Shown here one piece after another: positions 752 through 55,881 of a DNA stretch of 64,000 nt (position 1 is its first letter; each line of letters starts with the position of its first letter). This DNA is from a virus. Lineage: Duplodnaviria; Heunggongvirae; Uroviricota; Caudoviricetes. Made by a program: the position numbers and the translations under genes. The DNA lies in the IMG/VR virus record IMGVR_UViG_3300012346_000380, positions 192,445-256,444 of that record; one strand, written 5' to 3'. The notes under the pieces were generated by a model that was not told where the DNA came from, made no database searches, and was given only the letters and a program-made list of their open reading frames with translations.

Positions 752-1183
752 TTATTGTTGCGTTTCTTTGATTTTATCATCAATAAAATCAGTTAAATCT
801 TTTACTGAACCTCTAAAAGCTCTAATATCTACCATTCTTTGATCTTCGCTTGGATTTCCAACGAATGTGTCTGAGTCTTTTGCTTCTAAAATTACATCAT
901 TATCAAATTTAATAGTTGGAGAAGGTGAGAATTGAGTTCCACCGTCTTGAGCTTCTAAACCATAAACGTCTTTTAACGTTTTAATAACTTTAGATTTATA
1001 AGACTTGTCTTTTAAATGAAAGTAAGTAACACTGTCATTAGGTTGATCAAGTATGCCTTTAACATAGTGTGATAATTCTTTTGCAATATATTCAGCAGCA
1101 TCTCCTGCCACATTTCCATTGTATTTTGATTCTTTAATTTCCAATTCATCAACGAATTGTTCAAATAATTTAATGTGTTCCAT
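752..1183 (-). CDS. Putative internal head protein with shared leader
   Basis: N-terminus MEHIKLFEQFVDE. Confidence 0.7.
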   Translation of the reverse strand: MEHIKLFEQFVDELEIKESKYNGNVAGDAAEYIAKELSHYVKGILDQPNDSVTYFHLKDKSYKSKVIKTLKDVYGLEAQDGGTQFSPSPTIKFDNDVILEAKDSDTFVGNPSEDQRMVDIRAFRGSVKDLTDFIDDKIKETQQ

Positions 1184-1192
1184 TGTTTTCTA

Positions 1193-1501
1193 TTATGATT
1201 TAAATTCTTTTAATAAAGAATCTGCTAAATTAGATGCGTTTACTCTGAAGACAATTCCTGCAGCATGATGCGATTTATCCCATTCCATACAGTCTCTGAA
1301 AAAATCCATGTTGTTAAACACTGAATCGATCCATCCAGCTGATTCTTCTTTGGTATATGCGTCTAAAGTTTTACTATCAGGTATAAAGCTGATATAAGAA
1401 CCTTTAGAGTCTTGGCTTCCCATTATTGTAAATGTAAATCCATTAGATGAAAATTTACTAGCTTCATTAATGAATGATTCAAAGTTTGTTGTGTGTTTCA
1501 T
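1193..1501 (-). CDS. Putative internal head protein with shared leader
   Basis: N-terminus MKHTTNFESFINE. Confidence 0.7.
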   Translation of the reverse strand: MKHTTNFESFINEASKFSSNGFTFTIMGSQDSKGSYISFIPDSKTLDAYTKEESAGWIDSVFNNMDFFRDCMEWDKSHHAAGIVFRVNASNLADSLLKEFKS

Positions 1502-1788
1502 TATTTCTTTTTAAGTTCTTTTCCAAATTCTGTTAAAGCGCCATTATCATCCATAACTCGAAAGTGTTCTCTAGAATTACCTTTAGTTAATTCAACGTGT
1601 AATCCTGGATTCATACCTCCAAGATCTTTTGGTGCCCATAATCTTACAACTGTCCAAGTTCCAGACTCTGATTTTAAAGTAACTTTATCCCATGTTGAGA
1701 TTCCAGTTTCTTCTGTAAATTTTTTGGTTAATTTATCTCCAATTTGAGCTTCATTAACAAATTCTTCGTATAGTTTTATGTGTTTCAT
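1501..1788 (-). CDS. Putative internal head protein with shared leader
   Basis: N-terminus MKHIKLYEEFVNE. Confidence 0.7.
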   Translation of the reverse strand: MKHIKLYEEFVNEAQIGDKLTKKFTEETGISTWDKVTLKSESGTWTVVRLWAPKDLGGMNPGLHVELTKGNSREHFRVMDDNGALTEFGKELKKK

Positions 1789-1794
1789 ATCTTA

Positions 1795-2343
1795 TTAATT
1801 TTTTGGCCACATCATCATTGTTCCTGGATCATTCCAAGAAAACCACCAACCTTTTTTCTCTACAGCATCAACTACATTCTTAAGTACGCCATTTTTATAT
1901 TTAGCACTTTTGTTGTAGTAATCAAATATTTTGTTACCGCTTAATTCTTCTCCATTATCTCCAGCAATCCAAATACCGTCAGTATCTCCACGTAAAAATT
2001 CTTCAGAAGTTCTAACATGTTTGATTTTGTATTTAGTTTCCATCATATCCATGATTTCTTCTCTACTAGCATCTTTAGCTTCATTAAGAGATTCTCCTAA
2101 TGTTATATTGCTTTTTAATGTTTTTACAAAACATGAATCAATATTTCCAATTACAGTTGACGTATAATCATCAAGAATATCATAAAACACTTTTGCTTTC
2201 GTGAATGATACTTTAACTACAGATCCCCATCTTTCGTCATCACCGGGCGCAGTTATAAACGATACAGGTTCTCCAATTTCAAATTGTGCTGGAAAGTTTA
2301 CTTCTTCGTTTATGTATTGTTCAAATAATTTTACCTTTTTCAT
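1795..2343 (-). CDS. Putative internal head protein with shared leader, two domains
   Basis: N-terminus MKKVKLFEQYINE; internal GESLNEA. Confidence 0.7.
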   Translation of the reverse strand: MKKVKLFEQYINEEVNFPAQFEIGEPVSFITAPGDDERWGSVVKVSFTKAKVFYDILDDYTSTVIGNIDSCFVKTLKSNITLGESLNEAKDASREEIMDMMETKYKIKHVRTSEEFLRGDTDGIWIAGDNGEELSGNKIFDYYNKSAKYKNGVLKNVVDAVEKKGWWFSWNDPGTMMMWPKN

Positions 2344-2345
2344 AA

Positions 2346-2927
2346 TTAAAAATCTTTACGTGAAGCTACGCTTTTTTTGTTTTTATCAAAGAATGCACCT
2401 AAGATACCAATTTGTGCAACACTAAAAGTATGTTCTCCACCATTAACTTTATCTTTAATAAAGATCATTGGTTGAATTTCAAATTGTTTGTTTGGTGTAA
2501 ATTTTGCATTTAAGATAGCTTTACTAGCGCTTAATAATTCTTCCATATCTTCAGATGTAAAAGGAATATCAAAATAGTAGATTAATCCTGTTGAAGAATC
2601 TAATGATGGTTTTTCGTCAGCCTCATTAACAATCGATTCACCAATAGCTTCTTGTGCAATCATTGCTTGAATAACATCCGCTGAAATCCATCCGGCTGCT
2701 TTAAAGAAATCATGAGCTAAATTCATCACTTTCTTTTCATCTCCGTTGGTAACTTCATTGTCTTTACCATCTTCGTTGTTAAGATTCCATTCTTCAACCT
2801 CGTCTTCAACAGCTCTTGCTACTTTAGACGCAGATGTTATTTTTGTAGATTTTTCATGGTAATCTGCCCAATATTTAACGTTTACTGACTCATTAATAAA
2901 GTCTTCAAATCCTTTTACGTTTTTCAT
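2346..2927 (-). CDS. Putative internal head protein with shared leader, two domains
   Basis: N-terminus MKNVKGFEDFINE; internal GESIVNEA. Confidence 0.7.
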   Translation of the reverse strand: MKNVKGFEDFINESVNVKYWADYHEKSTKITSASKVARAVEDEVEEWNLNNEDGKDNEVTNGDEKKVMNLAHDFFKAAGWISADVIQAMIAQEAIGESIVNEADEKPSLDSSTGLIYYFDIPFTSEDMEELLSASKAILNAKFTPNKQFEIQPMIFIKDKVNGGEHTFSVAQIGILGAFFDKNKKSVASRKDF

Positions 2928-3229
2928 TATGATATGTATGTGTTTAGTTCGTATTTATCACCCATTCCATATATTGAAATTCCAAGGGCTTTCTTTTGTT
3001 CTTTACCATCTTTAAAAAGAGTGATAGTAAATCTGTTTGTAAAACCATCACCTGGTTTTCTAGGACCCATGCCAATTTTAGTGGCAGTTTCTTCTTTGTC
3101 ATATTCATATCCTTGTGATTCAGCATATTCTAATGCAGCCTCAACAGCCGATGTATAACTTCTGTGGTAAATTTGGTAACTTGATTTCTTTTCAGTTACA
3201 AATTGTTCAAATAATAAAGTATGTTTCAT
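2927..3229 (-). CDS. Putative internal head protein with shared leader
   Basis: N-terminus MKHTLLFEQFVTE. Confidence 0.7.
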   Translation of the reverse strand: MKHTLLFEQFVTEKKSSYQIYHRSYTSAVEAALEYAESQGYEYDKEETATKIGMGPRKPGDGFTNRFTITLFKDGKEQKKALGISIYGMGDKYELNTYIS

Positions 3230-3230
3230 A

Positions 3231-3653
3231 TTATTTACCTAGTGCTTTTTTAACTTCTTTAACAAATTTAACTGCTCTATCAGCTGCATCTTTCATAGAT
3301 TTTGCTGTAGCTTTTCTAAATTTGATTTTTAAACGAGTTTCATAAGATACTTGTTTTCCTGGTTCGTATAAAGACTGTGTGAAAACTTCCATTTTACCAT
3401 CTTTGTAAATTGCCATTCTAAAATAATTAGAATTTTCTACATAACCATGAGACCACTCAGTTTTTGGTTCAAATGAAACCAAAAGCATAATTGTATCATT
3501 ACCAAAAACACCTTTACTTAAAGAGATATAACCTGGGTTTTCTTTTTCTAAAGCATCTTTTAATATAGCAGATGCTTGTACAATATCTGTAGTTCCATCA
3601 TCAAAGATTAAGGCTTCATTTACGTATTGTTCAAATAATTTTACTTTTTGCAT
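3231..3653 (-). CDS. Putative internal head protein with shared leader
   Basis: N-terminus MQKVKLFEQYVNE. Confidence 0.7.
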   Translation of the reverse strand: MQKVKLFEQYVNEALIFDDGTTDIVQASAILKDALEKENPGYISLSKGVFGNDTIMLLVSFEPKTEWSHGYVENSNYFRMAIYKDGKMEVFTQSLYEPGKQVSYETRLKIKFRKATAKSMKDAADRAVKFVKEVKKALGK

Positions 3654-3681
3654 GATTTAAGTTTATTTTATAGTCTATATA

Positions 3682-4134
3682 TTATTTTATTATTAAGTAA
3701 TTTAAAACTTGTTCCCAGTTTTCAAAATTAGGTTGACCAAACTGAATCCATTGACCTTTGAATTCTGCAGCACCATTATTAGGTCTATCATCAATAAGAT
3801 AATCACCCATTAAAAGATCCTTTCTGTGAGAAAGTATAAGTCTTTTGTGTGCTAATTTACCCATGTGTTTTTGAACCCAACGTCTTTTAGAACTCCAAGA
3901 CTCTGCATTTGACCATGGCGCTGTGCTTAAAAAGTAAACTTCGTACTGTTCCATAAGTATTTTAACAGCATCTAGAGCTCCTTCGATAGGCTCTGGATTC
4001 TCAAACAACTCTTTATCTACTGATGTTAATCTTCCTAAGTGTCTAACAGCATCTGGTCCGTGTCTTTCGATTGCGTGAGCTTCTAAATCAACCATTACTC
4101 CGTCTAAATCGATATAAACTATTTTCTTGTCCAT
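3682..4134 (-). CDS. 5'(3')-deoxyribonucleotidase, HAD superfamily (NT5C-like)
   Basis: YIDLDGV motif I, LSTAPW, KDLLMGDYLIDD; start moved to MDKK because the upstream extension overlaps a promoter. Confidence 0.85.
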   Translation of the reverse strand: MDKKIVYIDLDGVMVDLEAHAIERHGPDAVRHLGRLTSVDKELFENPEPIEGALDAVKILMEQYEVYFLSTAPWSNAESWSSKRRWVQKHMGKLAHKRLILSHRKDLLMGDYLIDDRPNNGAAEFKGQWIQFGQPNFENWEQVLNYLIIK

Positions 4135-4140
4135 CTTCTT

Positions 4141-4200
4141 GTTTTTAATTATAATGTAAATATACAAAAAAAAGCCCAAATAAAAAAATATTTGAGCATT
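4141..4200 (-). promoter_or_regulatory. Class 1 (putative early) promoter repeat
   Basis: - strand TTTTTTA-N~16-TATATTTAC-N-TAATTAAAAAC; one of 12 copies. Confidence 0.7.
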
Positions 4201-4222
4201 TATTTTAAAAATTTAATGATTT

Positions 4223-4942
4223 TTATGAATTGGCCTTAATCCATTCTTTACCAATACGGTTTTGTAATGGTTTATTAAGTAATTTATTAATAGCGCCTGC
4301 CATTTTATCAAAGTGTTCAGTTCCAGAGACTGAATTGTCAACAATGATTAAGTTATCTCCACCAAAAATAGTTTGGAAGTGACCTATATTGTTTTGTACA
4401 TTCTGCCAAATTTCTTTAACCATTTCTTCAGGTAAAGATCTTGATCTAGCTGCATTTCTTTGTAATGCAACTTCTAATGAAGTATTAACAAAAATCATAT
4501 AACAATCATAACCATAAGCTTCAATTGCTCCTTTTTTAGCTGCAATTTTCTTATAATCATCGCCTGTACCATCAATGATCATACCTAATCTACCTTCTAA
4601 GTATAATTTTTGCTTTAAAGTAGTAACTCTTTTAGCTTTACCTCTTGGCGAATCTTCACCAGATGTTAATTCTGTGAATTTCTTAGGGTCCATAGTAGCT
4701 AAATCCTTTGGATCAACTCCCATGTTCTTTAATTGTACTTCAAATGCTTGATCTGAATTAATAACTTTAAGACCGTTTCTATATGAAATGCTTTGAATAC
4801 CATTCTCAGGTACACCAAACAATTCTTCAGCAGCTCTTGATTTACCAGAACCTGGTCCTCCAGCCATGAAAAATGCCTTTAAGATATTTTTATCGTGCAC
4901 ACCTTCATTAATAAACTCTTCAAATAATTTAACTAGCTTCAT
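4223..4942 (-). CDS. Zeta-toxin/AAA_33-like P-loop kinase with shared leader
   Basis: MKLVKLFEEFINE; GGPGSGKS, INSD, IIDGTG, LEVALQRNAARSR. Confidence 0.75.
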   Translation of the reverse strand: MKLVKLFEEFINEGVHDKNILKAFFMAGGPGSGKSRAAEELFGVPENGIQSISYRNGLKVINSDQAFEVQLKNMGVDPKDLATMDPKKFTELTSGEDSPRGKAKRVTTLKQKLYLEGRLGMIIDGTGDDYKKIAAKKGAIEAYGYDCYMIFVNTSLEVALQRNAARSRSLPEEMVKEIWQNVQNNIGHFQTIFGGDNLIIVDNSVSGTEHFDKMAGAINKLLNKPLQNRIGKEWIKANS

Positions 4943-5496
4943 TTTAATTTACCGTATATTCTTTTTGTAATTCTTTTACCAGCTTTTGATAAAAATCTTG
5001 TGTAATAGCCATTTTCAGTGAATTCTGGCTTTTTATCTAATCCAACGACATCTTCAATCATTTCTTTGTCTGTAATAACGGGAGCTTTGGCTTGACTCAA
5101 TAACTCTTCCATTCTTAAAGAAGCTTCTATAAACCACCCTTTAGTATTAACTAACTGTAAAAGTTTTTTAACAATATCGGATTTAGCTTCTTTTTTACCA
5201 TTAGTACCTAACAAAGCTATTTTATTGCCCCATTTAGTAGGCTTGTATATGATAAAAGCATCTGCTTGATGATCTGAGTCTACATCTTTTAAGGCAGTTG
5301 CTTTGTATTTTGCTTGCATTTCTTCCCAATCATCAGCTGATAAATCCATACCAGCATCTAAATATGTTTTAGTGTACATAGCCCAAATTGATTCCATGCC
5401 TTCTTTGTCAATCTTCTTAAGATCCATGTCGACCCACTTATTAGAAGGTATTTCGAATTCATTTAAGAATTGTTCAAATAATTTAACTTTCTTCAT
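4939..5496 (-). CDS. Putative internal head protein with shared leader
   Basis: MKKVKLFEQFLNE. Confidence 0.7.
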   Translation of the reverse strand: MKKVKLFEQFLNEFEIPSNKWVDMDLKKIDKEGMESIWAMYTKTYLDAGMDLSADDWEEMQAKYKATALKDVDSDHQADAFIIYKPTKWGNKIALLGTNGKKEAKSDIVKKLLQLVNTKGWFIEASLRMEELLSQAKAPVITDKEMIEDVVGLDKKPEFTENGYYTRFLSKAGKRITKRIYGKLK

Positions 5497-5497
5497 A

Positions 5498-5848
5498 TTA
5501 TTGAGGTAATCTTACCATTGTATTTCTTGTTTCACTCTTGTCTGTGTTTTTTACAAAACCATGATCTTTGTAAAACTTTTCTAATCTAGATGTTGAAGTG
5601 GCTCCAAAATCTTTAGAAGGTGTTAAGTATATTTTTAAACCTTTAGAATCAGCGTAAGTGTTAATTTGTTTCATGATTTCTGAACCAATACCTTCACCTC
5701 TTTTATCTTTTGGAATAACTATTCTTGACAACTCTAAAAATTTACCATTGTCATAAAGATCTAAGTCAATGCCATATTTGTCTTCTAAGTCTCTTAAAAC
5801 AAATTGACCTTCATTGATAAATTCTTCGTATAATTTAATGTATTGCAT
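5498..5848 (-). CDS. GNAT acetyltransferase with shared leader
   Basis: MQYIKLYEEFINE; acetyl-CoA motif RGEGIGS; LEKFYKDHGF. Confidence 0.8.
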   Translation of the reverse strand: MQYIKLYEEFINEGQFVLRDLEDKYGIDLDLYDNGKFLELSRIVIPKDKRGEGIGSEIMKQINTYADSKGLKIYLTPSKDFGATSTSRLEKFYKDHGFVKNTDKSETRNTMVRLPQ

Positions 5849-5849
5849 A

Positions 5850-6218
5850 TTACTCTACCTTTCCATCATTACCATCCATTGCATCATGAACAGCGTTTAA
5901 GTTTTCTAAAGAAACAGTTAGTTGAGAATACATCCAAGATTCTAATTGTTCACCTTTAGTCATTCTGTCCTTGATCATATTTGCATAGTCTGCAATTCTT
6001 TCAAGTTGACCTAAAGTCATTTCATTTAATTCAGCCAAAGTATCTCTACCTTCAGCTTCAGCCAATGATTCCTGTGCTGCTTCCCATCCTTCTTCATCTG
6101 GATAATCTTCATCACCTGGTTTTGCCGGAGCTTCACCTCTTTTTCTTTTTGCATGAATATTAGCCCAAAGACCTTTCTTTTCATTTGCAAAATCATCAAA
6201 ATTAGTTACGTGTTTCAT
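5850..6218 (-). CDS. Putative internal head protein with shared leader
   Basis: MKHVTNFDDFANE; GLWANIHAKRKRG basic motif. Confidence 0.65.
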   Translation of the reverse strand: MKHVTNFDDFANEKKGLWANIHAKRKRGEAPAKPGDEDYPDEEGWEAAQESLAEAEGRDTLAELNEMTLGQLERIADYANMIKDRMTKGEQLESWMYSQLTVSLENLNAVHDAMDGNDGKVE

Positions 6219-6757
6219 TATAGATTAATCTTTGTTTTTGTACCATCTGGTTGGGAATAGACTATATATTTAGGTTTAAGCTCCTTTTTAGTATCGTCTA
6301 GCATTTCAATGTATTTCTTACCTAAACCAGATTTTAAATAAGCAACTGTCATGTGTGGGTGATAGTCTGGATAATCTGTTGTGTGTGGTAATTTACTAAG
6401 TTCAGCATTACAATCGTGTAAGCTTGGACCTTCTACATCGTATTTCAACACATCAAACTTTTCATTTTCAAAAAGAGATGCATTTGTAATCGTACAATTG
6501 CCAAAAACAAAGTTTTTAGCTATATTTTCAATCACTTCAAGTTTTACATCATCATGTAAGCCATAAAGTAATGTGCAATGCGGTTCAGTTTCTAGGCCAA
6601 ATGTAGCATCTTTAGGATCTATAAAGACATCTTCTTCGTCTATTTGTTTATGTAAGTTTTCCATTTCAGGAAAATCAAAGTACAACATAGCACAACCATA
6701 ATCATACACTTTTTTCTTTTCAGTCACGAATTCTTCGAATAATTTTATATGTTTCAT
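6218..6757 (-). CDS. 2H phosphoesterase (Acb1/T4 gp57B-like fold) with shared leader
   Basis: MKHIKLFEEFVTE; two HxT motifs (HCTL, HMTV). Confidence 0.8.
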   Translation of the reverse strand: MKHIKLFEEFVTEKKKVYDYGCAMLYFDFPEMENLHKQIDEEDVFIDPKDATFGLETEPHCTLLYGLHDDVKLEVIENIAKNFVFGNCTITNASLFENEKFDVLKYDVEGPSLHDCNAELSKLPHTTDYPDYHPHMTVAYLKSGLGKKYIEMLDDTKKELKPKYIVYSQPDGTKTKINL

Positions 6758-6769
6758 CTTTTAAATTTA

Positions 6770-7069
6770 TTATGCACCAAAATCTAAGTCAAGTGTATCA
6801 TCCTTTTCATCATCATAATCTCCGGTTAAATCAACATCTTCTAAATCTATACCTTCAACTTTAATCTTCGGTCTAAAATGACCATCTCCGTCAAAATATG
6901 CTTTAAAGCTTCTACCAGAACCTACAGCACCGCACCAATGCATAAAAGCAAACATTTTTAAAAAATCATCTGCCGTTGATTGGTCAATATTAGAAATAGT
7001 TACATTTAAGGTAACTGTTCCGTCTTCCGCTTCTGTTAAGAAGTTTTCAAATAGTTTAATGTGTTTCAT
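6770..7069 (-). CDS. Putative internal head protein with shared leader
   Basis: MKHIKLFENFLTE. Confidence 0.7.
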   Translation of the reverse strand: MKHIKLFENFLTEAEDGTVTLNVTISNIDQSTADDFLKMFAFMHWCGAVGSGRSFKAYFDGDGHFRPKIKVEGIDLEDVDLTGDYDDEKDDTLDLDFGA

Positions 7070-7833
7070 TATTTCTTGTTTTCTTTTTTATCGTAATATT
7101 CCCAAACCTCATCTAATTGTTTAGGATCTGCTAACCAGCTTTCCCACCAGCCTCCACCTTCTTCTTCAACTAAAGAACCATCTTTTAATTTACGATATTC
7201 TTTTTCTTTAACTGCAATTTTAAAAGTTTTTGGTGTAAATGGAAATGATTTAATATAATGCATACAACCAATTTGTTCTTCGCTGCCCTCAGTTATACTA
7301 ACATGACCTGTAAAACCATAATCTTTTCCTTCAGGAATCCATACGATTGAATCTAAGTAATATGGTTGACCTTCTTTACCTTCTTTGAAAACCGAACTAA
7401 GTCTCATATTTTGAAAAGTTCCAGTGCCTTCTTCAGCGTCTTCGTATATTGAACAATCTGACCATTCTTCGTCTGTTCCCATGATTCCTTCTCCAAGTGG
7501 CTCCTGCGCTAATAATTTCTGTAACACTTGAACAATAACTGCACTCGTAAATGGAGCTGAGCCACCGCTTTGACCAGAATCAGCAAATTTCTTTACTAAT
7601 GCCATTACTTCAGGCACAAACTCTTTAATAATTGGAGTCCCACCTTCACCTTTACCTTCAGCATTTTTCATCATAAGATCCAATTCAAATTGAGCCTTAT
7701 CGACTAATCCTTCATTGATAGAATCAACAGAGATCATCTTAACACCTTCGTGTAAGAATTTAATTAGCTGAAATTTAACTTTGTTTTCGATTGATTCTGC
7801 TAAGAATTCTTCGAATAATTTAACTGTTTTCAT
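7069..7833 (-). CDS. Putative internal head protein with shared leader (first gene of array)
   Basis: Start reassigned to ATG at 7833: MKTVKLFEEFLAE. Confidence 0.7.
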   Translation of the reverse strand: MKTVKLFEEFLAESIENKVKFQLIKFLHEGVKMISVDSINEGLVDKAQFELDLMMKNAEGKGEGGTPIIKEFVPEVMALVKKFADSGQSGGSAPFTSAVIVQVLQKLLAQEPLGEGIMGTDEEWSDCSIYEDAEEGTGTFQNMRLSSVFKEGKEGQPYYLDSIVWIPEGKDYGFTGHVSITEGSEEQIGCMHYIKSFPFTPKTFKIAVKEKEYRKLKDGSLVEEEGGGWWESWLADPKQLDEVWEYYDKKENKK

Positions 7834-35736: not shown

Positions 35737-36306
35737 TTATTTTTCTTTTCTAGGTTCTATAAATAATTCCTGTAAGTCGCAGAACATTGGATATAATTGA
35801 TCCGTAACATCACCAAACCATCCAAGTTCTTGAATAAAGTTTGAGTTTTCTTTCTTATACATTTCAAACATTCTGCTTCCAGTCATTTTTGAATATTGTA
35901 CGTTTGCGATACGATCGCATATTTTTACAAAAGTTGCTCCTGGAGTCTCTCGAATTCCTTTGTAATAAGTTGCGTTTGCTCGTTCTTTACGGTTTTTACC
36001 TTTTTCATTTGAAACTGCATAAACGATTTCAGCCGCGTAGAGTCCTAAAACCCCTCTAACATCATTGTATGAAGTTCTAGTGTCTTCGATTAAATCATGT
36101 CCCCATGCACCTAAGATAACTCCATCTCTAAAAGATTCTTCTCCATTATTAGAATCTGGAAGTAAGTATAAATATTTGGCAGCAGTTGCAACTACCATTC
36201 TTAAATGAAATTCGTATGGAAGATAAGTATCATACATGTGATTTGTATCAGCATGTCGCTTCATAATCCATTTTAATTTATTAGCATTTGAGATTGTTTT
36301 TTCCAT
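35737..36306 (-). CDS. HD-domain (p)ppGpp hydrolase-like (SpoT/Mesh1 small alarmone hydrolase)
   Basis: PYEFHL, HDLIEDT, VKICDRIAN. Confidence 0.85.
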   Translation of the reverse strand: MEKTISNANKLKWIMKRHADTNHMYDTYLPYEFHLRMVVATAAKYLYLLPDSNNGEESFRDGVILGAWGHDLIEDTRTSYNDVRGVLGLYAAEIVYAVSNEKGKNRKERANATYYKGIRETPGATFVKICDRIANVQYSKMTGSRMFEMYKKENSNFIQELGWFGDVTDQLYPMFCDLQELFIEPRKEK

Positions 36307-48167: not shown

Positions 48168-48184
48168 ATTGGTAAAAAGTTTAG

Positions 48185-48258
48185 TAGTGACACCTGGACT
48201 CGAACCAGGGGCCTTCTCGGTATCAGCGAGATGCTCTAACCAACTGAGCTATGCCACT
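48185..48258 (-). tRNA. tRNA-Ile(GAT)
   Basis: Cloverleaf; CT GAT AC. Confidence 0.9.
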
Positions 48259-48418
48259 ATTTGGAAGGTCACCGATAGCACCTTCCTTGGTAGTTTTAGG
48301 AATAATTGACATTCCAAGGTTTCGAATTCTTTTATGTCTTGTTCTAAAAGACTCAACAACTGTTTCATTGTCGCCGCACCGGACTACTGCTACCTTAAGG
48401 CGAATCGGTTTTAAGCTG

Positions 48419-48490
48419 CTGAGATGGTAGGATTCGAACCTACGACCAATTGATTAACAGTCAACTGCGCTACCGCTGCGCTACATCTCA
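48419..48490 (-). tRNA. tRNA-Asn(GTT)
   Basis: Cloverleaf; CT GTT AA. Confidence 0.92.
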
Positions 48491-48495
48491 ATTTA

Positions 48496-49032
48496 TTAAT
48501 AAAGAATATCTATAACTTCTGATCTTAGATCTGTTTGTTTAGCAAAAGCTTCTGTTTCCCACGGTCTAACATCATAAGCTGGTAATTCTTTAACTTGATA
48601 AACTTTTTTATCAAACGTCAGTTGGTTATTAGTACGATCGATTATTAAATTGCCTGAACTATATTGCTGTAGATGTATTAGTTCATGCGAAATAATTTCT
48701 AAAGCATAATTTCTATCAACTTCTTTAATAAAAATAATGTAACCATTTTCAATACACACTATATGTGCTTTTAATTCTAAATCTTGTGTTGATTGAACTT
48801 CTAAAGGTAATATTAAAACTGAAGTCTTGTCGATTTTTAAAGCATGTAAACCTGCTAAAACTAAAGTATCTAAGTACTTCATGTTTGTTTTATTCTTAAC
48901 AAAATTAGATTCAGTAAAAGTAACTTTGTTAAAGGGTTTGTCTTCGTTAGCTTTATTTATTAACCAGATAGTTAAAGCCAATGCCAACATTGATATTAAT
49001 ATTATCAATGTTGCTTTCAGTTTTTTGTTCAT
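48496..49032 (-). CDS. Membrane-anchored zincin-like metallopeptidase
   Basis: HELIH (HExxH)...PWETEA; N-terminal TM. Confidence 0.7.
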   Translation of the reverse strand: MNKKLKATLIILISMLALALTIWLINKANEDKPFNKVTFTESNFVKNKTNMKYLDTLVLAGLHALKIDKTSVLILPLEVQSTQDLELKAHIVCIENGYIIFIKEVDRNYALEIISHELIHLQQYSSGNLIIDRTNNQLTFDKKVYQVKELPAYDVRPWETEAFAKQTDLRSEVIDILY

Positions 49033-49059
49033 TTAGAATACAAGAATTAAAAATTAAAG

Positions 49060-49134
49060 TGGCGGTCCCACGGAGAATCGAACTCCGAACTCAGCCGTGA
49101 CAGGGCTGCATTATAGCCGTTTAACTATGAGACC
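49060..49134 (-). tRNA. tRNA-Asp(GTC)
   Basis: Cloverleaf with encoded CCA. Confidence 0.92.
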
Positions 49135-49135
49135 A

Positions 49136-49210
49136 TGGTAGTCCGCCGGGGAATCGAACCCCGCTTACCAGGATGAAAACCTGGCGTCCTAACCGATAGA
49201 CGAGCGGACC
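49136..49210 (-). tRNA. tRNA-Glu(TTC)
   Basis: Cloverleaf with encoded CCA. Confidence 0.92.
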
Positions 49211-49219
49211 AAAATTTAG

Positions 49220-49294
49220 TTGCGAGAGAGGGATTCGAACCCCCGACCTCCAGGTTATGAGCCTGGCGAGCTGACCTACTGCTACTATCTCGCT
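49220..49294 (-). tRNA. tRNA-Met(CAT), initiator-like
   Basis: CT CAT AA; unpaired 1:72. Confidence 0.85.
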
Positions 49295-49337
49295 ATATGT
49301 TTCTTATATATCAACCTAATAAAAGGTTTCAATTTAG

Positions 49338-49408
49338 TTACCCGAGCAGGATTCGAACCTACACGAACAGAATCAAAATCTGTGATGCTACCTTTACATC
49401 ATCGGGCA
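49338..49408 (-). tRNA. tRNA-Gln(TTG)
   Basis: Cloverleaf; TT TTG AT. Confidence 0.9.
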
Positions 49409-49412
49409 ATTG

Positions 49413-49955
49413 TTATCTTTCTAACTTTTTAATACATTCATTGACTTTATCTCTAAGTCTACCACCGTAACCATGATCTCCATCAACTTGAACGTGTCTC
49501 CACATTGGCTCTCTTGGTGTCATCCATTTAAAAGCTTCACTTAAATTTAAATCATCAATTGCGATCCAATTCGAAACCTTATTATCTTTGACCCATTTTA
49601 AAATTTGTGTTGCTCTTTCAAAATCAATTGAAGGCTTACTCATTTTATTCCATGCGCCTGTTTGATATGCATTTTGATGCGTTGTAATATCAATGATATT
49701 AGCTGTGATTCCATAGTATTGAAATATGTGCTTTAATTGAATAAAGCTAAAATGCATTTTCCAATCTGAACTAATAACTAATTCTGCATCGGTTTCATCA
49801 CATATTTTTTGTAAAGCTTCACAGTCTTCTTTAACCCAAGGATATGGAATTTGAAATTCAAAATGTGATCCTTCTCTGATAGTAACTTTACCATCATCCC
49901 ATGTTGCCCAAGCCAATGGACCATCTACATCAATAAAAATTACTTTCTTTTTCAT
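49413..49955 (-). CDS. HAD phosphatase, Swiss-army-knife RNA-repair type
   Basis: FIDVDGPL, VISSDW, WIAIDD. Confidence 0.75.
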   Translation of the reverse strand: MKKKVIFIDVDGPLAWATWDDGKVTIREGSHFEFQIPYPWVKEDCEALQKICDETDAELVISSDWKMHFSFIQLKHIFQYYGITANIIDITTHQNAYQTGAWNKMSKPSIDFERATQILKWVKDNKVSNWIAIDDLNLSEAFKWMTPREPMWRHVQVDGDHGYGGRLRDKVNECIKKLER

Positions 49956-50027
49956 ATTATATATTTTATAATCTTATGCGTCAATTGTTTCATCAAGATA
50001 TATAGTCTATCAAAAAAATCACTAAAT

Positions 50028-50858
50028 ATGTCTACTAATACACCATTTGCATATAATCCTGGTTCTAATATATCAGGCACTCAAAAGATTGGTAATATCT
50101 CTTTTGGAACTCCTGATTCTGGCTTTCAAAATTCATCATTAAAATGGTGGAACGGTCCAGATGAAGATTTAGGTTATGTTATAACTAAACCAGATCCAGA
50201 AGGTTTGCACATCGGTGGTGATGAAACGATTGCTTATTTAGGCTTTAGAAGATCTGATTCAAAAACAGAAGCTTCATTCGTTGAATTAGCTAATAATATG
50301 TTTAATCAAAATTTTACAACAGGTAATGCTGCTAAAACATGGTTAAATGATAATGGCTATTGGACCTCTTGGGTTACCTCATCTTCTAGTGGAAACTCAT
50401 TCAATCTTGGTGATTATAAATTAGCTGCTCAATATACGCCAGCACAAAACAATGGTGATATTACATTTCCAGCACATCCATTAGTCAGTGGTCAGGGTTT
50501 AGGTATTACTAATCCTAATTTAGTTGGAACAGCTGATTCAAATTACAAATATCAATTATACATTAATGCAAACGATACTAACGGTAATGATAGATCATCT
50601 GTTTTAGATCAATTAATCGGCAACGCAGGTACATTAACATTAACACAAGGCAGTAATTCAGTAACATATAATTTTACAAATCAAGCATTTAACCATACTA
50701 ATGTTGGTCCTAGTACTCCTTACTTTTACGATTCACAATTTGGAACAGGTGGTCCAAACGTAGGCGCTTCACCTTTAGGTTCATTAACTGTACTTTCAGC
50801 TGCTACTTCTGATTTTAATACTAGTGATCCAATTTCAATTTCAATTACAACTGTTTAA
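50028..50858 (+). CDS. Probable virion structural protein (S/T/N/G-rich)
   Basis: Composition; GATATATA upstream. Confidence 0.55.
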   Translation: MSTNTPFAYNPGSNISGTQKIGNISFGTPDSGFQNSSLKWWNGPDEDLGYVITKPDPEGLHIGGDETIAYLGFRRSDSKTEASFVELANNMFNQNFTTGNAAKTWLNDNGYWTSWVTSSSSGNSFNLGDYKLAAQYTPAQNNGDITFPAHPLVSGQGLGITNPNLVGTADSNYKYQLYINANDTNGNDRSSVLDQLIGNAGTLTLTQGSNSVTYNFTNQAFNHTNVGPSTPYFYDSQFGTGGPNVGASPLGSLTVLSAATSDFNTSDPISISITTV

Positions 50859-50859
50859 G

Positions 50860-50944
50860 CGGAAGCTACAGGATTCGAACCTGTGGGACCGTGAAGTCCA
50901 CATCTTTAGCAAAGATGCACAATAGACCACTCTGACAAACTTCC
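50860..50944 (-). tRNA. tRNA-Ser(GCT)
   Basis: Long variable arm; TT GCT AA. Confidence 0.9.
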
Positions 50945-50946
50945 AA

Positions 50947-51603
50947 TTACATTTTACGTCCTAACTTCCAACCTTCTGGAATTAAGTCTCCTTTGTGTAT
51001 TTTCTTACTCTCAATACCATTTGTTATCCAGCATTTTCCATACTGAGAATTGTTTTCTCCTTTTTGTTTAGAAGAATTAGCTTTGCCAATTTTTCTTTTA
51101 GTTTCTTCTGAATGTGTTTTACCAGACCAATTACAAAATTCACCTAATTTTCTTCTACCTTCTTTATATGCTAAAAGATTTCCATTAGATACTTTTTTTG
51201 AAAAATTATTTCGCCAATTTTCATCAGTTTCTCTTAATTGTTTCATTTTAGAATTACCTTTTATACCTCTTTTACTCTGTAATATACCATCTTTATTATA
51301 TTGATCCCATCCACCTTCACCACCTAACATGAGATTCATGCATAATTCTTCATTTATCAATTCCGCATCAACTATTTCTTTTTCTCTAGCCTTTAAAGAA
51401 TTTCTGTCAGGTAAGAATTCTAATATTTCGCAAATATGATTTTCTTTACCATGTTTATTAATTGAATGCCAAAGTCTTTTACCTGAACCAACATAACCAT
51501 CTTCTATGTTGTCTGTTGAATGCATTCCAATATAAAACCTTTTATTAATAATACATGTTGTTTTATAAATGTAATGATATTTTCTTCTTGATGCTCTTTC
51601 CAT
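50947..51603 (-). mobile_element. Free-standing GIY-YIG homing endonuclease (Seg-like) with NUMOD3
   Basis: YIYKTT...FYIGMH...YVGSG; GKTHSEETKRKI. Confidence 0.88.
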
Positions 51604-51662
51604 GGATATTTAGATGTTTTTATAATCTATATATCCATGGAAAGTGGCAAAAAGGTTCGCAG

Positions 51663-51736
51663 GGTGATTAATGGGGCTCGAACCCATACTAGCAGAATCA
51701 CAATCTGACGTGCTAACCATTAACACTATAACCACC
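51663..51736 (-). tRNA. tRNA-His(GTG), G-1 genomically encoded
   Basis: G-GTGGTTA...TT GTG AT. Confidence 0.9.
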
Positions 51737-51745
51737 ATATAATTG

Positions 51746-51826
51746 TAACCTAGGAGAGACTCGAACTCTCACGTCTTTCGACACTGGTTTCTAAGACCAG
51801 CGTGGTTACCATTACACCACTAGGCT
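51746..51826 (-). tRNA. tRNA-Leu(TAG)
   Basis: CTGGT CT TAG AA ACCAG; long variable arm. Confidence 0.9.
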
Positions 51827-51938
51827 ATAAAGCCAATCCCGTAGATTGGCAGCTCAACTTTAGGTATTGAGTTTGCAAGAATAAATCTCTGACCAGTGCA
51901 TGCGTCCTTTGGGCGCCGCAATTAATATGTATATGAAA

Positions 51939-52601
51939 CTAATTAAATTTTATCTTTCTACCATAACACCAACCTTGAACCAAATAAGATTGAATGTGTT
52001 CTTTTTGAATTTTAATAGATTGTTTTATTTCATCGTTGAAAATCCAACAAGTTCCAAATTGAGAATTTTTAGAACCTTTACCGGTACCTTTTCGAGACTC
52101 ACTCATTTTTATTTTAGTTTCTTCTGAGTGTTTTAATCCAGAAAAAGTTAACAACTGATTATCGTGTATTCCTTGTTCGTGTCTTTTTTTAGCAGCATTT
52201 GAACATTTTTTACTAAAATCTTTAGCATATTGTTCATTTTTTAATTTTTCGCGAAAGGAATTTCTACTGTTTTTAGCAGCTTTCAACATGTGTTCTTTCG
52301 AAATAAAACCGCCGCCACCACCGATTTGAAGATTCATACACATTTTGTCTTCTATAAGTTCTTCATTAACTATTTCTTTTTCTCTAGCCTTTAAAGAAAT
52401 TCTATCTGGTAAGAATTCTAATATTTCACAAACATGATTTTCTTTACCGTATTTGTTAATTGAGTGCCATAGTCTTTTACCTGAACCCACGTAACTATCA
52501 TTTAAATTACATGTTGAATGCATTCCAATATAAAACTTATTTGTAATAATACATGTTGTTTTATAAATATAATGATATTTTCTTCTTGATGCTCTTTCCA
52601 C
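51939..52601 (-). mobile_element. Second free-standing GIY-YIG homing endonuclease, paralogue
   Basis: Near-identical N-terminal half; GLKHSEETKIKMS. Confidence 0.88.
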
Positions 52602-52660
52602 GGATATTTAGATATTTTTATAATCTATATATCCATAGAAAGTGGCAAAAAGTTTCACGG

Positions 52661-52735
52661 TGCTTTCTACAGGATTCGAACCTGTGACCCTCTGCGTGTA
52701 AAGCAGATGCTCTGAACCAACTGAGCTAAGAAAGC
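52661..52735 (-). tRNA. tRNA-Val(TAC)
   Basis: Cloverleaf; TT TAC AC. Confidence 0.92.
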
Positions 52736-52841
52736 ATGGAGCTTCATGTAGTTCACAACTAATAATCATATTGGATTATTCATTTACGTCTGCAACAGCT
52801 TTTAACTGAGAGATTGCAGAATTGTGCATGAAGCATTTAAT

Positions 52842-52920
52842 TTGGAGCAAAGATAGGATTCGAACCTATAACCTAATCTGGCCACATTGCCAGTTGCACG
52901 TCCAATTGTGCTTCAAAGCT
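52842..52920 (-). ncRNA. Aberrant tRNA-like RNA
   Basis: D and T arms, CCA end, mismatched acceptor, non-standard anticodon loop. Confidence 0.55.
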
Positions 52921-52929
52921 CATATAACT

Positions 52930-52979
52930 TGGGAAATGGTAGGATTCGAACCTACGTGACCACCATTGTCTCATTTCCC
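52930..52979 (-). ncRNA. 50-nt mini tRNA-like RNA lacking anticodon arm
   Basis: GGGAAATG/CATTTCCC, GAC-AATGGTG-GTC, GTAGG-TTCGAAT-CCTAC. Confidence 0.65.
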
Positions 52980-52984
52980 GTTCG

Positions 52985-53058
52985 TGACCCCGGCTGGATT
53001 CGAACCAGCGACCCCCTGATTAAAAGTCAGGTGCATCTACCAACTGAGCTACGAAGTC
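52985..53058 (-). tRNA. tRNA-Lys(TTT)
   Basis: CT TTT AA. Confidence 0.92.
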
Positions 53059-53164
53059 TGGTGGAAGCTAATCGCGTTTTTTTAAATAGAACCGGAGCTA
53101 CCATTAAAACTATTACAAGGATATTCTTATGCGCTATTAAGGACTCTCTTGTGCTTCCTTTCTG

Positions 53165-53290
53165 TGACTGTAAGGGGATTCGAACCATGATGATTACTAA
53201 CTCGCGACACTTTCATCATCTTTCATTAACCTAGTCATTAGACGTCTGATTTACCGGCAGACCTAGTTTTACCATTACTAGTATACAGTC
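53165..53290 (-). ncRNA. Expanded tRNA-like RNA
   Basis: GACTGTA/TACAGTC acceptor, D arm, 9-nt anticodon loop, long variable region, T loop. Confidence 0.55.
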
Positions 53291-53295
53291 ATTTG

Positions 53296-53369
53296 TTGCG
53301 ACAATTGGATTTGAACCAATGTCTGTGCCTTATGAGAGCACCGTAAGAAACCATCTCTACCATATCGCA
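53296..53369 (-). tRNA. tRNA-Met(CAT)
   Basis: CT CAT AA; T loop TTCAAAT. Confidence 0.8.
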
Positions 53370-53375
53370 ATATTG

Positions 53376-53447
53376 TGATTCCTGAATGATTCGAACATTC
53401 AATGCTCGGTTCGTAGCCGAGAGGTTTATCCGTTAGCCTAAAGAATC
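53376..53447 (-). tRNA. tRNA-Arg(ACG)
   Basis: CTCGG CT ACG AA CCGAG. Confidence 0.85.
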
Positions 53448-53510
53448 AATGCATCCCGTTACTCGTGCACGAGCCATGGCATTACGGGATCGATGTTATT
53501 CCATATTCTG

Positions 53511-53584
53511 TGGACCAGGCTGGGCTCGAACCAACGACCTACTGATTATGAGTCAGGCGCTCTAACCAACTGAGCTACAAGTCC
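53511..53584 (-). tRNA. tRNA-CAT, probably Ile2 (lysidine type)
   Basis: GGACTTGTAGCTCAGTTGGTTAGAGC...CT CAT AA. Confidence 0.8.
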
Positions 53585-53779
53585 ATTAATAATAAGTTGT
53601 TCCAGACCATACTATTAGGAACTATTAGGGCTTCTCGGACGAGGTGCACAACCCAACTGGTTATGATATGTTCTCTGTTACTTGGCTTCCACCTAGATTG
53701 GAATTAATACACGGGTTTCGAACCCACCTAATCAACGTATGCCTACATTAACTTTCACAGCACATCAACTTATTATTTG

Positions 53780-53850
53780 CACAAATGGAGAGATTCGAAC
53801 TCCCATCAACGGTTTTGGAGACCGGCATGCTACCATTGCACCACACTTGT
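53780..53850 (-). tRNA. tRNA-Trp(CCA)
   Basis: CT CCA AA. Confidence 0.9.
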
Positions 53851-53979
53851 AAATTTGACTACTACTTAGACTCTTCCGTTCCGTAATAGTAGTCCAAGGC
53901 GTCACGCACCCATCTGATAACTTTAATTCTCTTGAGTCCGGACAAGCGCTTGTCAACTCTGGGGTTGTTTCCTTGTTTG

Positions 53980-54060
53980 TGGGAGTGGAGGGATTCGAAC
54001 CCCCAATGTCGAAAGACCACGGATTTACAGTCCGCTAAGCAACCGTTGCTCAACACTCCC
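53980..54060 (-). tRNA. tRNA-Tyr(GTA)
   Basis: CT GTA AA; long variable arm. Confidence 0.9.
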
Positions 54061-54131
54061 AGTTCCAATTTTGATGGGCTCATCTGATAATATGTTTCAA
54101 TTACCCAGCACTTGAGATTGGGAACTCCTTG

Positions 54132-54203
54132 CTGGCCCGGCAGGAATCGAACCTGCATAAGATGATTAACAGTCATCCGTAATAACCCTTATACGACAGG
54201 CCA
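54132..54203 (-). tRNA. tRNA-Asn(GTT), second copy
   Basis: GATGA CT GTT AA TCATC. Confidence 0.88.
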
Positions 54204-54270
54204 ATTTGCCTCATGTGAGGCCACGTATCAATTCCATTAATACTACTCATGGAAACTAGATTGAATCTAG

Positions 54271-54861
54271 TGGTCACGACAGGATTCGAACCTGCAATTT
54301 CCAAAGAATAGAAGTATCTCGAGTTCGTTCTATTCCCTTTGAGGAAGTGTCACCTTTTACACCACGCAACCAATATTAGTGTCTTTACATGGGATTCGAA
54401 CCCATAATCTTCCGGACTAATAAAACCGGCGTTCCTAGCCAATATTAAACTACGTAAAGCAATCAATTAAAATTACAGAAATTAGTGACGTCAAATCTCT
54501 TTAAGCTATGTGTAATCTTAATCGTTAGGAAGATCTTGCTGATCAGGCATCTTCTTTGCTGATTAGAATGGATTCGAACCATAATCCTGAGCTCCAGTAA
54601 CGGTCTCCGTGCGCCTTTACACCATAATCAATCGTCAGTTTCGAACCTGACAGTTCTAAGTTAATTACTCTTAGAATTTGTAATTATGATTGGATTCGAA
54701 CCAATTTCAGCTTTGCCATAAAGAGTCGATTTCAACTCAACCTTGGGGAGGTGCCGCCAACCAATGGCCTCATAATTATTTGTTGCGATTAAAGGACTCG
54801 AACCTCTGTTGGGTATATCTACCGATACGGCTCATGAGACCGTCAATGCACCTGCATCGCA
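54271..54861 (-). ncRNA. Five aberrant tRNA-like RNAs (54271-54371, 54381-54460, 54559-54630, 54681-54778, 54783-54861)
   Basis: Each has acceptor-like stem and GGTTCGA(A/G)TCC T arm but a non-canonical anticodon or D arm. Confidence 0.6.
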
Positions 54862-55170
54862 ATATCGTGAAGTGAATGGATTCGAACCATTTGTCTGTAC
54901 TTGTACGACTTTAACCAGACCACTCCTAGAGCTGCAGCTCTGTTATAACGTATGCATCAACCTCTAAATGCTTTCCCTTTGACTATTACGGATGTGGACT
55001 CGAACCACATTATTTCAGTTACCTATGCGTTTTACTTTAAGCTGCCTTATTACTAAGGTTTCGAAGCGCATCTTTGATTAGGGAGCGACCCTATCTCTAA
55101 CGTCTTAAAGTAATTTTAAATAACTTCATCCATCCGGCACTTTCGGCCCTTACGATACCTCGTTATTTTG

Positions 55171-55242
55171 AGCAGATGGAGAGAATCGAACTCTCATCTT
55201 CAGATTGGAAGTCTGAAGTAATGACCATTATACGACATCTGC
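55171..55242 (-). tRNA. tRNA-Gly(TCC)
   Basis: CT TCC AA. Confidence 0.92.
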
Positions 55243-55267
55243 ATTTTTACCAATATTTCAAATAACG

Positions 55268-55445
55268 TTTGTTTTAATTTGTTATGTAAATATATTAAAA
55301 ACTTTTGATATAAAAAAATATTTTAGCAATTATTTTTAGAAAGTTATTAACAATTTATTTCTTCATCTAATCTTTGTTGTTTTAATTAGATATGTAAATA
55401 TACCAAAAACTTTTGATATAAAAAAATATTTTAGCAATTATTTTC
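55268..55445 (-). promoter_or_regulatory. Two tandem class 1 promoters upstream of the main tRNA array
   Basis: Duplicated gtaaatata...aaaacttttgatataaaaaaatattttagcaattatttt. Confidence 0.7.
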
Positions 55446-55625
55446 ATCAATTAATTCAATTTCTTTCACTATGCCTGCTCCAAACCTTTCTGCGTTGATA
55501 CAAAATAAAACGCTAGCTTCTGAAACTGCTTTAATTATATCTTCAATTGAATCTGTGTTTGCAATTGTTTCTATACCTAATAAAGGTATCTTAATAATGT
55601 TTTCCATTTTGTGTTTTATTTTTAG

Positions 55626-55698
55626 TGGGCCCTCAAGGAATCGAACCTTGTCCTCTAGTTCTTCAGACTAGCGTACGCACCAGCTATACCAAAGGCCC
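55626..55698 (-). tRNA. tRNA-Phe(GAA)
   Basis: CTAGT CT GAA GA ACTAG. Confidence 0.9.
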
Positions 55699-55703
55699 CT
55701 TAG

Positions 55704-55773
55704 AGTATAAGGTCGGAATCGAACCAACTCCGTGAGATTTGCAGTCCCACTGGCCTCCAAGACCAACTTATAC
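55704..55773 (-). tRNA. tRNA-Cys(GCA)
   Basis: CT GCA AA. Confidence 0.85.
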
Positions 55774-55806
55774 ATTTTACCAATATGTCAAAGAACCATT
55801 TTTTGT

Positions 55807-55881
55807 CTGGTAGGCAAGATTCGAACTTGCGTGCTCTAGCGTCCAAGGCCAGCGAGATAAACCTGACTCCTCTACTACCAG
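55807..55881 (-). tRNA. tRNA-Pro(TGG)
   Basis: CT TGG AC. Confidence 0.88.

Follow-up and report, generated by a model that had tools for sequence, protein, structure and literature searches.

The DNA analysed here (the window) comprises the final 64 kb of a complete IMG/VR virus genome of 256,444 bp with terminal repeats and 32% G+C, and contains at positions 752–7833 an array of 14 minus-strand genes, whose products share a 13-residue N-terminal leader. The genome belongs to an uncultivated relative of phage T4, which carries this tag on at least 25 unrelated proteins and probably ships a varied anti-defence toolkit in its head. Judged from the sequence comparisons described below, the leader is likely to be the form that the capsid-targeting sequence (CTS) of T4 takes in this phage clade.

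All open reading frames (ORFs) of the array, together with their places and leaders, were confirmed on the minus strand as given in a first-pass annotation of the DNA. They encode proteins of 95–254 aa, are nearly abutting or overlapping, and all start with M-x5-[FY]-[ED]-x-[FY]-x2-E. A six-frame regular expression scan agreed with the earlier statement that, within the window, the leader is confined to these ORFs: the sole loose match, at 35886, was internal and located in a 49-aa frame. The array is, however, not the whole repertoire. The profile scan of the full genome and its relatives proposed in the first-pass annotation was run with a position-specific scoring matrix (PSSM) of the leader, and resulted in 25 genome matches of at least 13.7 bits (the 99.99th percentile of all genome 10-mers being 10 bits) and in further contigs of the clade. 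All 25 matches were on the coding strand, N-terminal (none was internal) and started not more than 21 residues after the upstream stop, and at least 11 of these leader genes lie outside the array. The earlier interpretation as a T4-like capsid-targeting leader was supported by all sequence tests run. A looser scan added a few shorter look-alikes, for example at genome position 1283, where an ORF on the minus strand (G000:C1, approximately 1283) starts with M-T-Y-A-E-F-I-A-E, which is nearly the T4 tag. Starts of this kind were seen in two more minus-strand ORFs, at approximately 83071 and 87485: a 674-aa protein begins with M-N-F-Q-N-F-L-N-E, and a 426-aa protein begins with M-K-T-L-L-N-Y-T-E-F-L-I-E, respectively.

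The leader was also widespread among uncultivated viruses. Its exact degenerate DNA pattern occurred in more than 119 IMG/VR stretches among the matches listed, and in the 80 of them covered by the PSSM position count 205 of 214 matches were N-terminal. The 172 unique tagged ORFs from these 80 loci formed 104 sequence clusters sharing the leader columns only; the alignment columns with at least 90% identity across the clusters were limited to M1 (invariant), K2, K5, L6, E8, F10 and E13. A Pfam family was recognized in about 8 of the 104 clusters, including Tad3, zeta/AAA_33, GNAT, ATP-grasp, a cytidylyltransferase-like family and some DUFs. CheckV estimates for the leader-bearing contigs corresponded to genomes of approximately 250–310 kb. 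All 15 contigs of at least 130 kb carried an S77 peptidase domain, in 14 cases within fusion frames of 577–831 aa.

In T4, the internal proteins (IPs) IPI, IPII and IPIII (and Alt) bear the CTS MKTYQEFIAE (Mullaney & Black 1996, reviewed in PMC9026906, PMC3012670). In agreement with the first-pass annotation, the T4 record contained two copies of this sequence, one opening ipII and the other ipIII. According to T4 CTS mutagenesis, the targeting depends mainly on residues 4 and 7, and the processing on residues 8 and 10 (PMC9026906), while gp21 cleaves after the Glu in I/L-x-E (PMC12991175). When aligned from the cleavage end, the four T4 residues correspond to F/Y7, F/Y10, [ILV]11 and E13 of the leader, which, together with E8, are its most conserved columns. 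Of the 25 genomic leaders, 24 had F/Y at position 7 and all had it at position 10, E13 was invariant, and the leader end was [ILV]xE in 21 by regular expression count ([ILV] at P3 in 22 by the aligned column). The T4 CTS itself scored 8.7 bits on the leader PSSM, i.e., between the 99.9th and 99.99th percentiles of the genome background.

As had been assumed earlier from the varying codons, the conservation evidently acts on the peptide, because the choice among synonymous codons at the conserved positions follows that in the rest of the genome. F7 was encoded by TTT in 11 and by TTC in 10 leaders, and the same residue in two leaders had the same codon in 69% of cases, matching the genome codon-usage expectation (0.4–0.77 per residue); the mean pairwise identity of the leaders was 57% for amino acids and 68% for nucleotides. 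On these codon data, a DNA repeat, a duplication scar and a translation enhancer were rejected. In general, a shared start that is a nucleic-acid feature without any peptide role (translation-initiation enhancer, recombination or duplication scar) would be in line with the AT-rich leader codons, which are favoured near start codons, and with the strain joints located in or beside leader DNA. Nevertheless, it is highly improbable given the low nucleotide identity, the synonymous codons left as free as elsewhere in the genome with F, E, F and E being fixed, and the confinement of high identity in the 104 unrelated clusters to the seven leader residues listed above.

The gp21-like prohead protease, for which a search had been suggested in the first-pass annotation, was found outside the window, in a head module with the gene order portal, 125-aa acidic protein, 604-aa protein and major capsid protein (locus L014). 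The 604-aa protein (minus strand, G000:C1:51570–53383; L014:8569–10383) includes a Peptidase_S77 domain at residues 25–138 (PF03420, 46 bits), whose catalytic His and Ser, within GELDHP and ISSRAAG, align with H85/S140 of T4 gp21, named as its catalytic residues in PMC12991175. The remainder of the protein is an acidic coiled-coil scaffold, so that the protease and the scaffold are fused. The scaffold half contains nine [FY]xx[FYHS][ILV]xE motifs, mostly 14 residues apart, and this motif is the leader's own core. Shuffled sequences contained 0.14 such motifs on average, and nine were reached in 0 of 20,000 shuffles. The 125-aa acidic protein between the portal and the protease starts with the leader (one residue longer) and occupies the slot of gp67/gp68, which are head-core proteins in T4 (PMC5694885). 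One more tagged acidic protein of 239 aa (minus strand, G000:C1:136198–136917; L011:2198–2917), with a net charge of approximately −47, has a region of 51 residues with 61% identity to scaffold residues 360–410 and could be either a core component or a DNA mimic. In three clade mates, the tagged slot protein was present together with a protease-scaffold fusion with 6–8 repeats. A complex prediction for scaffold residues 195–360 with the product of leader gene 13 gave a score of 0.00 without controls, which speaks neither for nor against binding.

We propose that the leader core F-E-x-F-[ILV]-x-E reproduces the unit found at 14-residue intervals in the scaffold of the same phage, and, because of this, a tagged protein would be drawn into the scaffolding core during prohead assembly. 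The scaffold-fused protease of the gp21 family would then cut after the final Glu of [ILV]-x-E, freeing the mature cargo in the head, and the cargo would exit with the DNA at the next infection. Since the tag is short and self-contained, genes might gain or lose it, or be swapped as cassettes. Direct observations were the tag with its position and modular use, the protease, the repeat in the scaffold and the homologies of the cargoes, and from them core binding, cleavage after E13, packaging, injection and anti-defence activity may be predicted. More tentative, with chances that we put somewhat below even, is the mimicry of the scaffold repeat as a general principle, according to which some 13 codons would suffice for co-assembly with the core, and each T4-related lineage would have a private tag co-evolving with its scaffold.

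A second lineage is relevant in this respect, represented by a phage of about 200 kb in which gp21 (204 aa) is a protein of its own (L141 and L142, IMGVR_UViG_3300032293_000813 and 3300032213_002044). Its five or six adjacent unrelated genes share the start M-I-[KR]-L-x-[DES]-I-L-x-E, and its scaffold and head-core proteins carry IREILSE, IDEIIKE and LDEILRE; gp22 of T4 similarly starts with M-L-K-E-Q-L-I-A-E. The tag thus co-varies with the scaffold motif, an aromatic tag going with an aromatic repeat and an aliphatic tag with an aliphatic one. The agreement, which concerns three lineages (this clade, the second lineage and T4) and is not a statistic, is of the kind predicted for a scaffold mimic.

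The same observations bear on the question of whether the leader might be an N-terminal recognition tag for a machine other than the capsid, such as a ClpC-ClpP degron timing the removal of early effectors, a chaperone or a modifying enzyme. The genome does encode ClpP, which was also present in 9 of 17 partial clade contigs, and many of the cargoes are enzymes of a cytoplasmic type. Yet we regard this explanation as unlikely, because it does not account for the agreement with the T4-mapped CTS residues, the copying of the scaffold repeat by the tag, the tags on the head-core-slot protein and on the scaffold paralogue, or the [ILV]xE ending, and because an 83%-complete contig of the second lineage, which has a leader family of its own, contained no ClpP. 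To our knowledge, T4 also has the CTS but no ClpP. A recognition tag for radical-SAM enzymes was ruled out, since no radical-SAM gene is present in the complete genome.

The capsid-targeting interpretation was further in line with the modular behavior of the leader in individual cargo families. Homologues of the gene 8 kinase in Melnitz and HTVC008M have other short leaders (ending with L-Q-E and L-K-E) with the same boundary, and the kinase domain is also found inside a 779-aa protein of Atu_ph07. The KKGLW module of gene 11 stands in HTVC008M directly after Met-Ala (MA|KKGLW), with no leader. The family of gene 9, whose sequence matches were limited to uncultured huge phages, comprised 204 metagenomic homologues, the bodies of which start at a conserved [LFM]-E-I-P-S. 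Their leaders were lineage-specific (the 13-mer here, a 10-mer M-I-[SRK]-L-x-x-I-L-N-E), but all ended with L-x-E at one boundary. No tag repertoire was found in HTVC008M and P-HM2.

Differences between strains pointed in the same direction. Between the same flanks, a close relative, L088, has an array in synteny with this one at 70–98% protein identity, lacking genes 2 and 5 and having extra tagged genes, while more distant clade mates had only 2 of about 10 cargoes in common. In contigs from freshwater and wastewater, obtained in several studies, the joints were precisely at gene or leader boundaries: the joint 1788>5866 was recorded in four runs, one of them DNA, the joint 2344>6765 in three runs, and the joint 6751>7828 leads from leader to leader with six shared letters. 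Contigs from RNA libraries covering the array were used for strain variation and not as evidence of transcription, timing or transcript ends. In such contigs of three RNA-library runs an in-frame variant of gene 11 lacked 6057–6179 (residues ~14–54, the KKGLWANIHAKRKRG module), joining the leader straight to the acidic tail. The tagged genes, therefore, behave as exchangeable cassettes, because strains differ by whole tagged genes and the joints fall at gene or leader boundaries. In L088 a 381-aa ORF (plus strand, L088:9013–10158) has a second, internal leader, giving the arrangement tag-cargo-tag-cargo, and the same was seen in proteins P0003–P0006; if real, such fused ORFs could represent small polyproteins splittable by the prohead protease.

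Among the cargo genes, gene 14 (7069–7833; 254 aa) consists of the 13-aa leader, a 31-aa linker and a full-length Tad3 homologue. Its residues 45–249 matched residues 5–190 of the 194-residue Tad3 chain in PDB 9b7d_B (E-value 2.5e-35), and the Pfam family Tad3 (PF25185) was recognized with an E-value of 8e-19. The linker includes a second I-N-E site ending at residue 41, and the solved Tad3 begins where the linker ends. Tad3 itself has been shown by experiment to inhibit ThsB, the sensor of Thoeris (PMC13728456), and the homology suggests an anti-Thoeris role for the gene 14 product. Gene 12 (6218–6757; 179 aa) is, by its sequence, a 2H phosphoesterase of the Acb1/LigT-like type: it has two HxT motifs (HCT and HMT), scored 30.1 bits with the Pfam model 2_5_RNA_ligase2 and 28.3 bits with Acb1 (cut-off 27), i.e., below the generic 2H model, and matched PHROG 755, while a PDB sequence search gave no match.

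Three more cargoes of the array are assigned to predicted enzyme-type folds. Gene 8 (4223–4942; 239 aa) encodes a P-loop kinase of the AAA_33/zeta-toxin type recognized by Pfam and PHROG 12810 (E-value 5.5e-36), and gene 10 (5498–5848; 116 aa) a GNAT acetyltransferase (Pfam Acetyltransf_7/10/1; PHROG 10691). For gene 9 (4939–5496; 185 aa), ESM Atlas gave a weak GNAT lead, which was later backed by structure; apart from this, the Atlas search with genes 9 and 5 returned unnamed viral clusters only. The structure prediction for cargo advised in the first-pass annotation was performed with gene 9 and resulted in a confident AF2 model (pLDDT 87.6, below 50 at residues 1–13 only) with a disordered leader, and the top Foldseek matches of the model in PDB were all GNAT. 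The remaining cargoes of the array are unassigned. Outside the window, an R2K-type ATP-grasp enzyme was also tagged. The anti-defence toolkit postulated earlier is thus favoured by the Tad3 homologue and the Acb1/LigT-like 2H enzyme, although a homology-based anti-defence role was found for just one or two of the 14 genes.

Since about 96 of the 104 cargo clusters have no known function, it was also considered that the tag loads the prohead but that most cargoes, instead of being injected as effectors, have a role in the head or in its assembly (core building, DNA condensation, head-size control). Two of the tagged proteins, the 125-aa slot protein and the scaffold paralogue, are indeed core- or scaffold-like, and gp67/gp68 of T4 are proteins of this kind (PMC5694885). 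As a general explanation this appears improbable, because the Tad3 homologue, 2H phosphoesterase, P-loop kinase, GNATs and ATP-grasp enzyme present among the cargo would have their host targets or cofactors absent from a DNA-filled head. Moreover, the replacement of cassettes from strain to strain is what genes in an arms race typically show, and T4 delivers CTS-fused foreign proteins into host cells (PMC9026906).

Two motifs enriched upstream of genes might indicate when the tagged proteins are made. The motif ATATATA[AG] has 60 copies on the coding strand of the genome and 4 on the opposite strand, and is regarded as late-like because it precedes the capsid, protease-scaffold, endolysin and tail-fibre genes. 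In the window, its sites are at 3675–3682, 6262–6269 and 720–727. It was present within 130 nt upstream of eight leader genes (genes 7 and 11 and six outside the window) and was the nearest upstream motif for 22 of the 25. Another motif, TTGTATATTTAC, often located straight after a terminator, is regarded as early/middle-like, because it stands upstream of small unassigned genes and of a PRPP-synthase-like gene. The T4 late promoter TATAAATA was rejected as a candidate, being not enriched (20–22 per strand against about 34 expected), and a scan for sigma-70 promoters and terminators gave counts not above those of shuffled sequence, with the hairpin at 4174–4197 alone being useful.

Several results weigh against the capsid-targeting interpretation. 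The link between the late-like motif and the leader genes was modest (hypergeometric P 0.048), genes 14–12 have no recognisable late-like motif within 10 kb upstream, the early/middle-like promoter of the NT5C gene also lies upstream of the gene 7–1 block, and the timing of both motifs is itself deduced from the genes they precede. The mature cargo had pI values of 4.1–9.2, many being acidic, while the T4 IPs are basic. Four leaders were without the canonical [ILV] at P3 (A-N-E twice, N-G-E and an L-E-D-F-I-A-E variant), and no cultured phage with this leader was found in the searches of relatives and homologues.

Diverse internal proteins sharing just a CTS are established for T-even phages (PMC3012670, PMC9026906), whose IP loci are polymorphic (Repoila et al. 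1994, cited in PMC9026906, PMC3012670). The present system resembles the T4 IPs in having a short N-terminal propeptide common to proteins with no other relationship, an aromatic or hydrophobic residue at each of the two positions that serve targeting, a tag end [IL]-x-E, a gp21-family protease and a scaffold core in the same genome, and a diverse, fast-turnover cargo including anti-defence proteins (IPI* against GmrSD in T4). It differs by a 13-residue tag with a conserved K-x-x-K-L prefix, by at least 25 tagged genes per genome compared to 3–4 in T4, by a cargo of mostly enzymes or acidic proteins instead of small and basic ones, and by having the protease and the scaffold in a single 604-aa protein, with a tag visibly copying the 14-residue scaffold repeat.

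The ejection or inner-body proteins of the giant phages phiKZ and SPN3US are similar in that many head-internal proteins are loaded via N-terminal propeptides, that a T4-like, gp21-related prohead protease cuts after Glu, and that the large virions hold a big protein payload. However, their propeptides have 80–130 residues and no single shared short tag, the cargo is centred on the virion RNA polymerase, and no separate scaffold has been identified (PMC5694885, PMC7411985). In the Dar anti-restriction system of P1, the first 30 residues of the anti-defence protein DarB represent a capsid-packaging signal functional on a reporter, but the phage, the signal and the loading order are unrelated, one large protein takes the place of a tag family, and no requirement for cleavage is known (PMC9024508).

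Polyvalent proteins of phages and conjugative elements (described by Iyer et al. in 2017) reportedly were predicted to be delivered with DNA. They have an overlapping domain repertoire (zeta-like kinase, GNAT, ATP-grasp), and the matches of genes 8 and 10 lie in the interior of PHROG families with 788 and 3925 positions, respectively. In contrast to such giant fused polypeptides, the genes described here are separate, encode 95–254 aa and have a tag each, and fused ORFs with internal leaders are rare.

No description of this tag system was found in the literature searched. Compared with the systems above, it is new in its scale and in the 13-residue length of the tag, in the fusion of the protease to a scaffold whose repeat visibly resembles the tag, in the lineage-specific tags on one cargo family and in the presence of a known anti-Thoeris protein type among the cargo. 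If scaffold mimicry is indeed a general principle, the injected proteome of uncultivated T4-like phages would be readable from sequence alone, and inhibitors of signalling immunity of the Tad3 and Acb1 types would be delivered ready-made with the DNA, before phage gene expression; the Tad3 homologue among the tagged proteins suggests that such inhibitors can be pre-loaded. In that case, the approximately 100 unassigned tagged families would amount to a ready-sorted source of anti-defence proteins for the first strike. The tag marks at least 25 genes in a genome and some 100 unrelated families in the clade, more than 90% of them without known function, and these unassigned families make a focused list for anti-defence screening. 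The scaffold-mimic idea, in turn, offers a testable mechanism for the T4 CTS and might serve as a design rule when proteins are to be loaded into the heads of other phages.

The nearest cultured relatives of the phage are marine (the pelagiphage HTVC008M, Melnitz and cyanomyoviruses). The DNA of the window was present in freshwater and wastewater metagenomes of 12 studies, and, because the runs holding it are of this type, the phage is considered to be a freshwater and not a marine one; the marine origin suggested by the relatives was ruled out on the same grounds.

The remaining part of the array consists mostly of genes with unassigned cargo. Gene 1 (752–1183; 143 aa) starts with MEHIKLFEQFVDE, and parts of it recur in the 381-aa ORF of L088. 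Genes 2 (1193–1501; 102 aa) and 5 (2346–2927; 193 aa) are those missing from L088, gene 3 (1501–1788; 95 aa) has the joint 1788>5866 precisely at its start codon, and gene 4 (1795–2343; 182 aa) is adjoined by the joint 2344>6765. Gene 6 (2927–3229; 100 aa) has a leader-bearing homologue in L092. Gene 7 (3231–3653; 140 aa), which is basic, is the first gene after the late-like promoter motif ATATATAG at 3675–3682 (minus strand), located 21 nt before its ATG. The same motif at 6262–6269 (minus strand) is within the end of gene 12 and 44 nt before the ATG of gene 11 (5850–6218; 122 aa), which combines the KKGLWANIHAKRKRG module with an acidic tail and has PHROG matches. Gene 13 (6770–7069; 99 aa) encodes an acidic protein matching PHROG 10928.

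The only gene without the leader between 752 and 7833 encodes an NT5C-type 5'-deoxynucleotidase (3682–4134, minus strand; Pfam PF06941, E-value 1.3e-16). It is headed by a terminator-like hairpin (4174–4197) followed by the early/middle-like motif TTGTATATTTAC (core 4158–4165), both on the minus strand within 4158–4197, and thus has its own terminator- and promoter-like signals in the middle of the array, at a position conserved in L088. Elsewhere in the window, 23 tRNA genes are present on the minus strand between 16331 and 55881, the majority clustered at 48184–55881. Within this cluster, a pair of paralogous ORFs (50950–51603 and 51942–52523) resembles GIY-YIG homing endonucleases by sequence.

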